This document shows positions 11,717 through 38,348 of a stretch of 48,549 nt of DNA, one piece after another. The notes under the pieces were generated by a model. The model worked only from the letters and a program-made list of their open reading frames with translations. It was not told the DNA's origin and made no database searches. Within the stretch, counting starts at the first letter, position 1. Every line of letters starts with the position of its first letter. Origin of the DNA: an uncultured Candidatus Saccharibacteria bacterium (lineage in GTDB: Bacteria > Patescibacteriota > Minisyncoccia > Phycocordibacterales > UBA12445); assembly GCA_964531375.1 (NCBI GenBank), contig CAZHDO010000005.1:1-48549 (forward strand). Reading direction: 5' to 3'. A program made the position numbers and the translations under genes.

Positions 11717-11756
11717 TTAATTAGACATTACGAATTTAAACAAACTTGCCATGTTC

Positions 11757-11866
11757 GAATCGTCGCTTCCTTTGGAAACGACGATTCTGGTTTCCTGTTT
11801 AATTTTCAAGCTTGAGGGCTTGGTGGTAAAAAAGAAACGCCACTTCCAAAAGGGAAGAGACGTTTC
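11757..11866. repeat. composite REP-like element, GAAACG family, copy 2
   Basis: GAATCGTCGCTTCC..GGAAACGACGATTC and GAAACGCCACTTCC..GGAAGAGACGTTTC. Confidence 0.8.
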
Positions 11867-12031
11867 GTACTTGGTTAAGGATTGGATAAAGCTTTACAAA
11901 AACCCTAAAATATGCAGAATAGGGGATGTTTAATGTTCTTTTAAATAAGGCAATAAAAAAAGGAGGTGACAGGGTTTGGTCTGTTTTTGTTTTACGAAAA
12001 TAAAAAAAGATAAATAAAAGGAGTGTCAGAT

Positions 12032-13896: not shown

Positions 13897-14493
13897 ATGG
13901 CAATAACTAGTGAACAAATTAAGAAAATTAGAGACCTTACCAATGTGTCTGTTATGCAATGTAAGAGAGCTTTAGAAGAGGCTGGCGGAGATGAAGCAAA
14001 GGCACTCTTGCTTTTGAGTAAAAAGGGAACTGAGATTGCTCAGAAAAAAGCCGAGAGAACTCTTGGTGCTGGTGTTGTCGTTTCTTATGTTCACTCTAGT
14101 GGTACAGCTGGATCTTTAATCGAATTAAATTCTGAATCTGATTTCGTTGCCAAGAATGAAGGTTTTAAAGCTTTGGCTTATGATATAGCTATGCATATTG
14201 TTGCAATGAAGCCAGAATACTTAAAACCAGAAGATGTGCCTGCTGATGCTGTTGCTAAGGTTGAAAAGATGTTTGCAGAAGAGGTAGAGAAGGCTAATAA
14301 GCCAGAAGAAATAAAGAAGAAGATGCTTGAGGGTAAAATTTCTTCTTACTTCGGAGAGAGAACTCTTTTAAAGCAGGCTTATATAAAGAATCCTGACCAA
14401 ACAATAGAAGATCTTATAAAAGCACACATTCAGAAGTTTGGAGAAAAAATAGAAGTAGCTAGATTCACTAGATTCTCTGTTTTGGATAAATAA
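13897..14493 (+). CDS. tsf: elongation factor Ts (short form)
   Basis: IKKIRDLT..MQCKRAL, ELNSESDFVA, IAMHI, GEKIEVARF. Confidence 0.96.
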   Translation: MAITSEQIKKIRDLTNVSVMQCKRALEEAGGDEAKALLLLSKKGTEIAQKKAERTLGAGVVVSYVHSSGTAGSLIELNSESDFVAKNEGFKALAYDIAMHIVAMKPEYLKPEDVPADAVAKVEKMFAEEVEKANKPEEIKKKMLEGKISSYFGERTLLKQAYIKNPDQTIEDLIKAHIQKFGEKIEVARFTRFSVLDK

Positions 14494-14497
14494 AATA

Positions 14498-14884
14498 ATG
14501 TATTACTTATTATCAATATCATCTGTTTCTTTTTTCATTTCATCCTTCGTCCTTTTACGAAGGGTTCATGAGAATAGGATTATAGGAATTCCTGGGGATC
14601 ACAGTAGTGATGTCTATTGGCCGTTCAATGTTATCTTCGGATATTTTTATAGAAAGATAAAAATGGTTTTTGTAACTATAAATAATTTCCTAGCTCCACA
14701 CTTCGTAAAATTAGTTGGTAATTTCGCAACAAAACTTTACAGATTTACATCAGTCGCTTCAGGTTATTTTTTACAGCTCTCAAATCTTGTGCACGGTAAG
14801 GGTTCTTTGAAGAAAAATACTGGACAAACTTCCCTTTTTATCAGAGATATTTCAGAATATAAAAAAGCACTTAACGGAAAATAA
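14498..14884 (+). CDS. hypothetical membrane protein
   Basis: 128-aa ORF directly after tsf with N-terminal hydrophobic segment. Confidence 0.65.
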   Translation: MYYLLSISSVSFFISSFVLLRRVHENRIIGIPGDHSSDVYWPFNVIFGYFYRKIKMVFVTINNFLAPHFVKLVGNFATKLYRFTSVASGYFLQLSNLVHGKGSLKKNTGQTSLFIRDISEYKKALNGK

Positions 14885-14933
14885 ATTATCTGCTATTATA
14901 TTTGGACGAAGTTTTGTTTTAAAATTTAAGTAG

Positions 14934-15016
14934 CAGTATTGCCATCTTACCCGCGCGAATGACTGAAGTCATTCAGTCGGGCGGGGCTCAGTAGCATCAA
15001 TTGTTTTGTAAACAAT
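14934..15016 (+). pseudogene. degenerate duplicate of tRNA-Thr 5' half with a 36-nt palindrome inserted
   Basis: CAGTATTGCCATCTTA-[insert 14950-14985]-GCTCAGT..CAATTGTTTTGTAAACAAT matches 15238-15286. Confidence 0.85.
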
Positions 15017-15254
15017 GTTTACTGTATACGTATTAAGAAGTGAAGATGGTAGATTGTACAAGGGCATGACTAATAATCTGGTTAGACGTTTTAAAGAGCA
15101 TGGATGTGGAAAAACTAAAACCACTAGCACTATGCAAAATTTAAAAATTGTTTATACTGAAGAGTACGAAAATTTTGATGGGGCGAGAAGTCGAGAATTA
15201 TATTTAAAAACTGCATCTGGTAGAAGATTTTTAAAAACAGTATTGCCATCTTAG
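15015..15254 (+). CDS. small GIY-YIG nuclease family protein
   Basis: VYVL..LYKGMT.NL.RR..EH, ARSRE..LK; stop codon lies inside tRNA-Thr. Confidence 0.9.
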   Translation: MFTVYVLRSEDGRLYKGMTNNLVRRFKEHGCGKTKTTSTMQNLKIVYTEEYENFDGARSRELYLKTASGRRFLKTVLPS

Positions 15255-15316
15255 CTCAGTGGTAGAGCAATTGTTTTGTAAACAATAGGTCGTCGGTTCA
15301 AATCCGACAGATGGCT
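15245..15316 (+). tRNA. tRNA-Thr(UGU)
   Basis: Cloverleaf: GCCATCT/AGATGGC acceptor stem, GCTC/GAGC D stem, ATTGT-TTTGTAA-ACAAT anticodon arm, GTCGG-TTCAAAT-CCGAC T arm; CCA not encoded. Confidence 0.96.
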
Positions 15317-15344
15317 CAGATTTTACGCAGTAAAATATTCTAAA

Positions 15345-15456
15345 CTGTCGGATTTGAACCGACGAAGGGGGTCGGGGAAACTGTAGTTTCCCCGTGTAGG
15401 AAGGACTGGGAAAACCGTGGGTTTCCCAGGAGGTTTAATTCCGACAGATGGCTCCA
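15345..15456. repeat. tRNA-associated element: antisense T-arm copy, two hairpins, direct copy of tRNA 3' end
   Basis: 15345-15365 is the exact reverse complement of 15290-15310; 15432-15456 GGTTTAATTCCGACAGATGGCTCCA repeats the tRNA 3' end. Confidence 0.85.
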
Positions 15457-15478
15457 GTATTATGGTTTAACCTATTTC

Positions 15479-15761
15479 GAAACGTCGTTTCCTTTTTTGG
15501 GAAACGACGTTTCTGATTTGCTGAATGATTGTAAATTGACCGCAAGTTCGAAGCGTAATTGATAACCAGGAAACGTCACTTCCAAAGGGAAGAGACGTTT
15601 CGCATTACCAATTAATTACACCCACTCTAAAATAACCACTCCCTAAACCTCGTTTCCTTTTCAGAAACGAGGTTTATGATTTACTAAATGGTAGTAAATT
15701 TGCTGTAAGTTTAAAGGATGGTGGACATCATCACCTTCAAAAGGGATGAGACGTTTTGTCC
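15479..15761. repeat. composite REP-like element, GAAACG family, tandem copies 3 (15479-15601) and 4 (15644-15761)
   Basis: Same two-palindrome layout as 76-193 and 11757-11866. Confidence 0.82.
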
Positions 15762-15785
15762 TTGGTTAAATCCTTAAAGTACAAA

Positions 15786-15814
15786 TTGACATCTTATTTC
15801 ATATTTCGTAAAAT
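15786..15814 (+). promoter_or_regulatory. sigma70-type promoter
   Basis: TTGACA-17 nt-TAAAAT. Confidence 0.75.
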
Positions 15815-15898
15815 TTGGAGATAATTTTTTGTTCTTTGAATTTAAAGCCAAGCTCTAAAGGAGTTCGGTTTATTATAGAGTTAGGAGGTGTTCTAATA

Positions 15899-16018
15899 AT
15901 GAAGATGGTTCGTCGAAGAGAAAAGTCCTTTTCTGTTTATTGCTTTAATCTCGTCCGGCTTAGGCTGGAAGTTTTCTTTCTTCGTGTTGTTGTTGCTTTT
16001 TTCGAGCCCTGTTCTTAA
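15899..16018 (+). CDS. putative 39-aa small basic/hydrophobic protein
   Basis: AGGAGGTG SD, consensus promoter upstream, terminator 16042-16067. Confidence 0.5.
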   Translation: MKMVRRREKSFSVYCFNLVRLRLEVFFLRVVVAFFEPCS

Positions 16019-16106
16019 GTTGGACCAATCTCTCTCTTTTTGCCACACGACCTTGTGTGGCTTTTTTATATAGACTTAAGTTTCTTGTTGGTTTATACTT
16101 TTGTTT

Positions 16107-16856
16107 ATGCAAAAGAAAGATTTAGAAAAAGGTCATATACATCCAATTACTCAAACAATAGTGGAAATCGTAGATGCTTTTAAAGATATTGGTTTTACTG
16201 TAGCCGACGGGCCGGAAATTGAAACTGAATTTTATAATTTTAATGCATTGAATGTGCCCCAGGATCACCCAGCAAGAGATATGCAAGATACTTTCTGGTT
16301 GAAACCACTTGACGCTCGAAAATTACTAAGAACCCAAACAAGTGCTGTGCAGATAAGGCACATGCAGAATAACCCTCCACCGATAAAGATTATTGCTCCA
16401 GGAAAGATTTTTAGAAACGAGGCGACTGACGCTACGCACGAGGCACAATTTCATCAGATAGAAGGTTTGGTTGTTGATAAAAACATATCGCTTGCACACT
16501 TAAAAGGAACTCTAGAATATTTTCTTAAGAAACTTTTTGGAGATTCTGTTGAGATTAGATTAAGGCCAAGTTATTTTCCGTTCGTTGAGCCGGGTTTTGA
16601 AATAGACATGTCTTGTTCTGGCTGTATTAAGGGTGAAAATGATACCTGCTCAATGTGTCACGGGACTCGTTGGATAGAAATTATGGGGGCAGGAATGGTG
16701 CACCCAAACGTTTTAAGGGCTGTTGGTGTTGATCCTGAAATCTGGAAAGGTTTTGCCTTTGGAATCGGTGCAGATAGGCTTGTGATGCTTAAATATGGCA
16801 TAGATGATATTAGAAATCTTTATTCGGGCGATTTGAGGTTTGTAAATCAATTTTAA
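16107..16856 (+). CDS. pheS: phenylalanine-tRNA ligase alpha subunit (N-terminally shortened)
   Basis: GHIHP, HPARDMQDTF, LLRTQTS, FHQIEG, YFPFVEP, GAGMVHP. Confidence 0.97.
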   Translation: MQKKDLEKGHIHPITQTIVEIVDAFKDIGFTVADGPEIETEFYNFNALNVPQDHPARDMQDTFWLKPLDARKLLRTQTSAVQIRHMQNNPPPIKIIAPGKIFRNEATDATHEAQFHQIEGLVVDKNISLAHLKGTLEYFLKKLFGDSVEIRLRPSYFPFVEPGFEIDMSCSGCIKGENDTCSMCHGTRWIEIMGAGMVHPNVLRAVGVDPEIWKGFAFGIGADRLVMLKYGIDDIRNLYSGDLRFVNQF

Positions 16857-37859: not shown

Positions 37860-37929
37860 TGTCATTCCGAGCGCAGTCGAGGAATCGCTTCTACGTTTAA
37901 GGGATCCCTCGACTGCGCTCGGGATGACA
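37860..37929. repeat. GTCATTCCGAG-type palindromic repeat upstream of GIY-YIG gene
   Basis: TGTCATTCCGAGCGCAGTCGAGGAATC / GATCCCTCGACTGCGCTCGGGATGACA. Confidence 0.9.
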
Positions 37930-37956
37930 GGTGGTTTGGAGTGATAGCAAATAAAT

Positions 37957-38241
37957 ATGAAAAACCATATATATTATATTTATATTCTGGCTAGCCACAG
38001 CGGTACTTTGTACATTGGGGTAACAAATAATTTAGAACGTAGAATTTCTGAACATAAACAGGGACTGGTCGAAGGTTTTACAAAAAAATATGCATGTAGC
38101 CGTTTAATATATTACGAAGAGTGTGGTGATGTTAACCAAGCAATCACACGAGAAAAGCAATTGAAAAATTGGAACAGAAAAAAGAAGGAAGTTTTAATTA
38201 AAACTCTCAATCCGCAATGGAATGATTTAGCTGAAGTTTAG
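37957..38241 (+). CDS. small GIY-YIG nuclease family protein (UPF0213-like)
   Basis: YYIYIL..TLYIGVTNNLERRI.EH, GFTKKY, AI.REKQLK.W.R.KK..LI...NP.W.DL. Confidence 0.93.
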   Translation: MKNHIYYIYILASHSGTLYIGVTNNLERRISEHKQGLVEGFTKKYACSRLIYYEECGDVNQAITREKQLKNWNRKKKEVLIKTLNPQWNDLAEV

Positions 38242-38253
38242 GGGGAGGTATTT

Positions 38254-38327
38254 TGTCATTTCGACATTGTGGAGGAATTGCTTATGCTAAAACACTAAGG
38301 GATCCCTCGATTGCGCTCGGGATGACA
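38254..38327. repeat. GTCATT-type palindromic repeat downstream of GIY-YIG gene
   Basis: Degenerate left arm; right arm TAAGGGATCCCTCGATTGCGCTCGGGATGACA is nearly identical to 37898-37929. Confidence 0.85.
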
Positions 38328-38348
38328 AGAGGGAGGGTGGTGCCGGAT

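Follow-up and report, generated by a model that had tools for sequence, protein, structure and literature searches.

How a gene for a nuclease of only 79 amino acids came to lie between a broken copy of a tRNA-Thr gene and the intact gene is the question raised by the locus that begins at position 14934 of the window, the 48,549-nt stretch of DNA analysed here. The preliminary description took the locus for a minimal selfish element bounded by duplicated pieces of its tRNA. The window belongs to a Patescibacteria-type genome (G000) of 859 kb in 13 contigs that is 94% complete, and the genomes of three congeners (G001, G002 and G003) were used for comparison.

The cassette at the tRNA-Thr gene

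The locus lies between tsf and a 128-aa ORF on one side and pheS on the other, the names tsf and pheS being presumed from the translations. Its parts, with coordinates in the window, are as follows.

14871..14899, + strand: promoter-like site with a -35 box, a 17-nt spacer and an extended -10 (consensus match only)
14934..14949, + strand: upstream repeat, part 1, 7 nt of flank and tRNA-Thr nt 1-9, identical to 15238-15253
14950..14985, no strand assigned: GC-rich imperfect palindrome of 36 nt between tRNA nt 9 and 10, belonging to a repeat family
14986..15016, + strand: upstream repeat, part 2, decayed D-arm and perfect anticodon arm (tRNA nt 10-43)
15015..15254, + strand: predicted gene for the 79-aa single-domain GIY-YIG nuclease, Slx1/UPF0213-like
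15238..15286, + strand: downstream repeat, 7 nt and tRNA nt 1-43, overlapping the final codons and stop of the ORF
15245..15317, + strand: intact tRNA-Thr(TGT), Rfam 76.6 bits, the sole Thr(TGT) detected in the assembly
15318..15456, + strand: non-coding tRNA trailer, separate from the nuclease cassette, with an inverted T-arm copy (15345-15365) and a displaced 3'-end copy (15432-15456)

The nuclease ORF is bounded, as first described, by direct repeats made up of the 7-nt flank and the 5' half of the tRNA through the anticodon arm. Based on gapped alignments of the upstream and intact tRNA copies, from which the repeat boundaries were taken, the 19-nt anticodon arm is exact (14998-15016 is identical to 15268-15286) and the D-arm of part 2 has 5 nt where the tRNA has 7. 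The ATG start takes the final two bases of the duplicated anticodon stem, and nt 1-10 of the intact tRNA supply the last base of a Leu codon, a Pro codon, a Ser codon and the TAG stop; both of these earlier observations can be read directly from the DNA. The palindrome was inserted with no target duplication, the 37-nt stretch that contains it has a folding z of -4.2, and a near-identical copy lies at G000:C2:92750. The cassette holds a single GIY-YIG ORF and both tyrosine-integrase (PF00589) matches of the genome lie on other contigs (C4 and C9), in line with an element free of an integrase.

The trailer downstream of the tRNA (folding z of -3.5) was considered as the right end of the cassette and rejected, because similar trailers also follow Thr(GGT) and Asp tRNAs without a nuclease gene in G001 and the filled Thr site of G002 has none. 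The displaced direct copy of the tRNA 3' end within the trailer includes CCA, which the intact tRNA-Thr gene lacks. A group I intron was rejected as well, as the tRNA is intact and partly repeated and not a single interrupted tRNA; Rfam gave no intron family at E up to 1 over 14480-16120. Paired 14-nt inverted-repeat hairpins occur at 15466-15770, 74-205 and 11754-11878 of the window, and such pairs are found on most contigs, often at contig ends. The 128-aa ORF (14498-14884) has no Pfam match, is present in all three congeners at 38-62% identity, and overlaps the promoter-like -35 box with its 3' end.

Promoter-like sites numbered 4 as compared with 2.0 expected by chance. The -10 region of the site at 14871-14899 is conserved 18 nt before the uninterrupted tRNA of the empty congener G001, and the site is likely the native tRNA promoter, now placed upstream of the broken copy. 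Transcription of the nuclease gene from the tRNA promoter and RNase P cutting of its mRNA, both put forward in the preliminary description, are plausible; RNase P RNA and tmRNA are present in G000.

The 79-aa ORF matches the GIY-YIG family (PF01541) with a score above the cut-off (E-value 5e-13). In 98 aligned homologs Y5, Y15, G17 and R25 are invariant and H29 and E61 are at least 90% conserved, and the consensus of these homologs has no conserved Asn after the Glu. The structure model of the protein (pLDDT 92) gave UPF0213 (1zg2), Slx1 and HIGLE as the best Foldseek matches, with I-TevI and UvrC far lower; a sequence search against structures returned 1ywl and 1zg2, and NCBIfam held no family for the protein. 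By sequence and predicted fold, the ORF is an Slx1/UPF0213-like GIY-YIG protein with an apparently intact set of catalytic residues. The protein is a single domain without a separate DNA-binding or auxiliary domain. This favours recognition of hairpin or branched DNA, and we infer that the 79-aa protein recognises DNA of this kind.

A family of cassettes at tRNA genes

A 4-sequence alignment served as query for homologs, and the top 80 were taken from 119 genome loci and another top 80 from at least 448 metagenome loci. The 185 distinct ORFs scored (31 family-level, 87 genome and 67 metagenome) were chosen by protein similarity alone. A same-strand tRNA started within 120 nt downstream of 133 of them, that is, of 15/31 family-level, 59/87 genome and 59/67 metagenome ORFs, and an opposite-strand tRNA was found within that distance for 0/185; the organisms behind the loci are related, so that these numbers show a pattern and are not independent trials. 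Many ORFs outside the 133 are mirror or tandem forms. Among the 127 ORFs that have a tRNA no more than 60 nt away, 26 anticodons and 16 amino acids are represented, and 97 of the 127 have an upstream partial tRNA copy scoring above all of 30 shuffles. The idea of a minimal tRNA-associated nuclease cassette thus holds well beyond the tRNA-Thr gene, and the overlap with different tRNAs that had been proposed as a check on the homologs is borne out. Its opposite, a one-off duplication whose homologs have no association with tRNAs, is contradicted by the strong association across the 26 anticodons. The stop codon lies inside the tRNA at 96 of the 127 loci, 72 of these at nt 8-10. It lies outside at the other 31, and the overlap of ORF and tRNA is therefore not required.

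Hosts among the homologs comprise Patescibacteria, Bacteroidota (all at tRNA-Arg) and Bdellovibrionales records, the nearest named homologs being Patescibacteria records. The cassette is also carried by cultured Bacteroidota (for example at loci L105, L106 and L111), so that its mobility can be tested at the bench. The distribution is patchy: in an even draw of the order, 18 of 81 genomes had a match at E 1e-22, and by eye the loci of these 18 are mostly tRNA cassettes or inverted-repeat-flanked genes. On viral contigs, 352 candidate pattern matches included no relative of the 79-aa protein. Mirror layouts and full-length copies occur, with the downstream flank included, and at some family sites the ORF is broken or lost. 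A tree of 179 proteins over 76 columns was mostly unresolved. Tandem arrays in Bacteroidota and Bdellovibrionales (L111, L113, L122, L123, L124, L090 and L092) consist of units of an ORF and a palindrome-broken tRNA beside one intact tRNA.

The Pfam search of G000 gave seven GIY-YIG matches. The same cassette layout was found at tRNA-Asp on C10 (protein 66% identical, truncated at the contig end) and at tRNA-Ser(GGA) on C1, resulting in a total of three filled tRNA sites, along with one ORF-less relic at tRNA-Arg(TCT) (G000:C2:92728-92912, L221), where a palindrome-broken 5' copy stands before an intact gene. The D-arm region contains a GC palindrome in every one of the four broken copies of the genome (4/4). 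G003 has a piece resembling the Arg(TCT) relic upstream of tRNA-Arg(GCG), and at L219, L220 and L222 of the same congener a non-coding stretch of about 100-150 nt separates a 5' copy broken by a palindrome from an intact tRNA-Ala or tRNA-Glu.

How the cassette may spread

In 50 of 118 loci, 8 nt separate the last conserved motif of the protein from tRNA +1 (the 9 of the 127 that lack this motif were left out). The spacing is found in Patescibacteria-type as well as Bacteroidota loci and is what in-register exchange would be expected to give. The upstream copy ends at nt 38-39, just past the anticodon, in 21 of 97 loci, at nt 40-47 in 9, beyond nt 65 in 4 and earlier in the others. Among the 85 loci with an exact copy of nt 1-9 the shared flank has a median length of 2 nt, and flanks of at least 5 nt were found in 9 as compared with 1.2 expected in shuffles. 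The tRNA-Thr locus of the window is atypical in both respects, sharing 7 nt of flank and having an upstream copy that ends at nt 43, whereas the commonest ends in the family are at nt 38-39.

At nt 1-9 the broken copy is identical to the intact tRNA in 85 of 127 loci; in 19 it has another acceptor strand, and in 23 its start is not recognisable. In 14 of the 127 the two copies differ at two or more of nt 1-7, and the earlier view that the repeat always duplicates the resident tRNA does not survive these loci. Nine of the 14 differing strands are real acceptor 5' strands for the same amino acid that are found elsewhere in the locus set; among the 14, the upstream piece of L158 is a neighbouring tRNA that is itself whole, and L077, if no other, probably matched by chance. 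The differing acceptor strand in the broken piece suggests that in the different-allele loci other than L158 and L077 the cassette arrived with its own tRNA, cutting off the resident one. Only one near-identical pair was found at two different tRNAs, L065 at tRNA-Val(GAC) and L075 at tRNA-Val(TAC), with ORFs 98% identical and the palindrome and spacer in common. Since the 3' end of L065 is like that of another Val(GAC) cassette and retains this older, tRNA-specific form, the pair looks like a conversion between two existing cassettes and not a fresh jump. A search for remnants of an earlier host tRNA behind the palindrome flagged no more than 6 loci, mostly weak ones.

That the cassette is mobile appears very probable from these comparisons. 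As to the means, the reading that we favour, with a probability of about 0.6, is that the cassette, about 300 bp long, is a selfish element that cuts the DNA of tRNA genes and recombines into them with the tRNA arms as regions of homology, and we infer that repair, expression and palindrome breakage of the leftover copy form part of the same mechanism. In the first step, the protein would nick hairpin arms in single-stranded tRNA-gene DNA, in line with its fold relatives, which cut branched or hairpin DNA. In the second, donor DNA carrying the ORF and a tRNA, probably acquired by transformation (ComEC is present in G000), would repair the break, the left join falling somewhere from the D-arm to the anticodon loop and one whole tRNA being restored at the right join. 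The restored tRNA could be the resident allele, in which case the result looks like a duplication, or that of the donor, resulting in a replacement. In the third step, GC palindromes would enter the same stem-loop junctions and be tolerated only in the redundant copy, in which they might abolish the cut site and make excision harder. Lastly, the tRNA promoter would drive the nuclease gene and an RNase P cut at tRNA +1 would leave a stop-less mRNA, which would keep the level of the nuclease low. Several points count against homing of this kind. The agreement at nt 1-9 in 85 of the 127 loci is not predicted by simple replacement from distant donors, the protein has no separate DNA-binding domain, the Thr copies of three congeners fall into one clade, if with a support of 0, and the L065/L075 pair resembles conversion.

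Palindromes lie within 150 nt upstream of 96 of the 127 cassettes, mostly in the D-arm, by a loose rule without a shuffle control. The palindrome is thus a family-wide feature and not chance decay: the decayed state of the upstream copy and the 36-nt palindrome in it were both correctly described at the outset, and it is the reading of the palindrome as incidental to the decay that has to be given up. Of 144 distinct palindromes over all loci, the rule placed 102 in D-arm contexts, and most of the other 42 were seen by eye to fall within pieces of an anticodon arm or a T-arm. Palindrome insertion is not accompanied by target duplication. Across the whole of genomes G000-G003, 17 of 44 palindromes lie within 500 nt of a tRNA, as compared with about 2 expected from the tRNA density of G000, and 27 lie farther away. 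Palindromes are also found in tRNA fragments of non-coding elements that have no nuclease ORF. The placements strongly suggest that palindromes are tied to redundant tRNA sequence, but their presence far from tRNAs and in ORF-less fragments makes the link to the nuclease only an association. A palindrome of the same family is apparently inserted within the pheS region of G002 (L009, about 2205-2245).

The palindromes could instead be the ends of a single-strand transposon, in which the nuclease recognises the GC palindrome and palindrome and ORF enter D-arm sites as a unit, a possibility that we consider unlikely. It would account for the frequent presence of a palindrome upstream, most often after a TA dinucleotide in the D-arm, for the palindrome, spacer and ORF that L065 and L075 have in common at different tRNAs, and for the terminal inverted repeats that flank the genes of sister clades; SsnA, for which the NTS hairpin would be the counterpart, is reported to bind a hairpin and cut beside it (PMC11893778). 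However, the palindromes of G000 and G002 differ in both site and sequence at the same tRNA, some broken copies have two palindromes and others none, the tRNA piece behind the palindrome is usually that of the resident tRNA, and the looseness of the palindrome rule also weakens the case. GIY-YIG enzymes hydrolyse DNA and are not known to join strands.

The congeners allow the history of single sites to be followed. At the syntenic Thr(TGT) site G001 is the empty congener, the other two being filled; at tRNA-Asp, G001 and G003 are empty and the cassette is present in G000 and G002. The empty alleles anticipated in relatives thus exist at both tRNAs. At the Asp site the broken copy retains the flank found in the empty congeners and therefore marks the original position. 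The Thr(TGT) cassette of G003 has kept its ORF and lost the upstream copy. This locus (L010; G003:C9, about 57300-57720) has neither the promoter nor the upstream copy, its GTG start follows directly after the stop of the preceding gene, and downstream of the tRNA there is a partial tRNA copy interrupted by a palindrome. The acceptor stem of the G000 tRNA-Thr differs from that of its congeners and each broken copy (G000 and G002) matches its own tRNA allele, with the palindrome placed after nt 9 in G000 and after nt 21 in G002; one ancestral duplication therefore fails to explain both without later renewal. A DNA tree of 36 rows groups the Thr(TGT) copies of the three congeners in a single clade, at a support of 0, and by identity the congener copies rank below 37 and 53 other rows. 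Vertical descent of the Thr site within the genus, with a loss in G001, is not rejected by these comparisons. Two DNA assemblies, possibly the source of the window, cover the locus in one piece and contain no empty-allele or circle joint, contigs being prone to drop rare variants; the single RNA assembly does not reach the cassette.

A nuclease kept by its host, which restricts incoming single-stranded tRNA-bearing DNA (such as integrating islands) or takes part in repair and leaves the repeats as scars, seems improbable to us. Vertical descent of the Thr site would suit it, as would the conserved catalytic residues, and SsnA is reported to modulate transformation in Neisseria (PMC11893778). 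However, the patchiness, the many tRNA sites, the tandem arrays and the broken or lost ORFs fit a selfish element better, and the cassette protein is 62-63% identical to its congener counterparts, which is below the values for tsf and pheS (71-83%) though similar to those for the neighbouring 128-aa ORF (38-62%).

Copying from RNA is highly improbable. In this scheme RNase P cleavage would make the ORF transcript end at tRNA +1, and the tRNA 5' half and the ORF would be copied into a nick in the anticodon loop by a reverse transcriptase supplied in trans. The repeat does begin at or a few bases from tRNA +1, as judged from the median flank of 2 nt, it often ends at nt 38-39, and the genome has RNase P RNA, but the 94% complete G000 has no RVT_1 match, the flanks of at least 5 nt in 9 of 85 loci exceed the 1.2 expected, mirror and full-length copies include the downstream flank, and the different alleles upstream are left unexplained. 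A stand-alone GIY-YIG gene that landed by a tRNA once and was inherited vertically would explain the ORF at the same tRNA in two of three congeners, whose single clade is not rejected, but the recurrence of the layout, at 26 anticodons across several phyla and three times in G000, makes this reading barely credible and refutes it for the family as a whole.

Relation to known systems

The family is real and widespread, and it is likely selfish. Islands that integrate at tRNA genes by means of tyrosine integrases restore the target tRNA and leave a displaced tRNA fragment at the other end. The cassette resembles them in having both a restored tRNA and a displaced fragment, and differs in its length of about 300 bp, in having no integrase or second gene, and in that the displaced piece is usually the 5' part. 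SegB-type endonucleases, which are much longer than 79 aa and consist of a catalytic domain and a C-terminal DNA-binding region, resemble the cassette in that their GIY-YIG gene is found together with tRNA genes of many isotypes. SegB of phages T4 and T6 is reported to be a free-standing homing endonuclease that cuts a conserved tRNA motif, spreads with the neighbouring tRNA genes and drives the tandem amplification of tRNA segments; it is phage-borne, recognises 27 bp that include the T-loop motif, and adjoins tRNA genes (PMC2330249, PMC13096335). In contrast, the cassette encodes 79 aa, is chromosomal, and is nested between two tRNA copies with its joins in the D-arm and anticodon arm. The stand-alone Slx1-like/UPF0213 proteins (1zg2, 1ywl), the best matches of the cassette protein in both sequence and fold, are treated as probable repair proteins of vertical descent, with a minimal domain that lacks the C-terminal Asn of the UvrC lineage, in PMC1564403, in the consulted passages of which we found no mention of tRNA-gene nesting or mobility for them.

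The Ssn proteins (SsnA of Neisseria meningitidis, cd10448) are alike in being small single-domain GIY-YIG proteins whose gene stands beside hairpin repeats, and the authors of PMC11893778 remark on an insertion-sequence-like layout. The flanks of the cassette, however, are tRNA pieces with no NTS-like motif to be seen by eye, and its palindrome is unlike the NTS consensus; the word "tRNA" is absent from the main text of PMC11893778. The cassette joins a SegB-like tie to tRNAs with an Ssn-like size and hairpin company, and lacks a defining feature of each. Our literature search, to which subscription papers were largely closed, found no description of the cassette, and the Ssn supplements might list such loci.

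If the homing reading is true, a small and common "repair nuclease" gene would often be a selfish element inside essential tRNA genes, even in the streamlined Patescibacteria. It would also provide a testable origin for the GC palindrome family and a means of exchanging tRNA alleles among lineages, and would make available a compact nuclease whose natural target is likely a hairpin. A bolder and tentative proposal, to which we give less than even odds, is that the cassette represents a class of minimal mobile DNA in which a lone 79-aa nuclease targets tRNA hairpin arms without an integrase, transposase or reverse transcriptase, restores or replaces the tRNA, mobilises GC palindromes and is silenced by RNase P. 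If so, such DNA would offer a route for tRNA alleles between bacteria, and the palindromes would be non-autonomous partners that inactivate the redundant copies.

The remaining small GIY-YIG paralogs of G000 have inverted repeats (C4), NTS-like hairpins (window 37957-38241) or nothing evident (C1) in their flanks. NTS-like motifs flank the paralogs at 37957-38241 of the window and on G002:C9, and these NTS-flanked paralogs form a starred branch of their own, apart from the 79-aa protein, in a rapidly built tree of 76 columns whose branches are long. The paralog of the window has 94 aa, with the NTS-like hairpins at about 37860-37930 and 38240-38330, and looks like a member of Ssn. The sister gene on C4 (G000:C4:26281-26514) has no tRNA near it and is hugged by terminal inverted repeats in the manner of a tiny insertion sequence, a layout also found at L031, L043, L044, L046, L048, L052, L239, L242, L243, L252 and L254.
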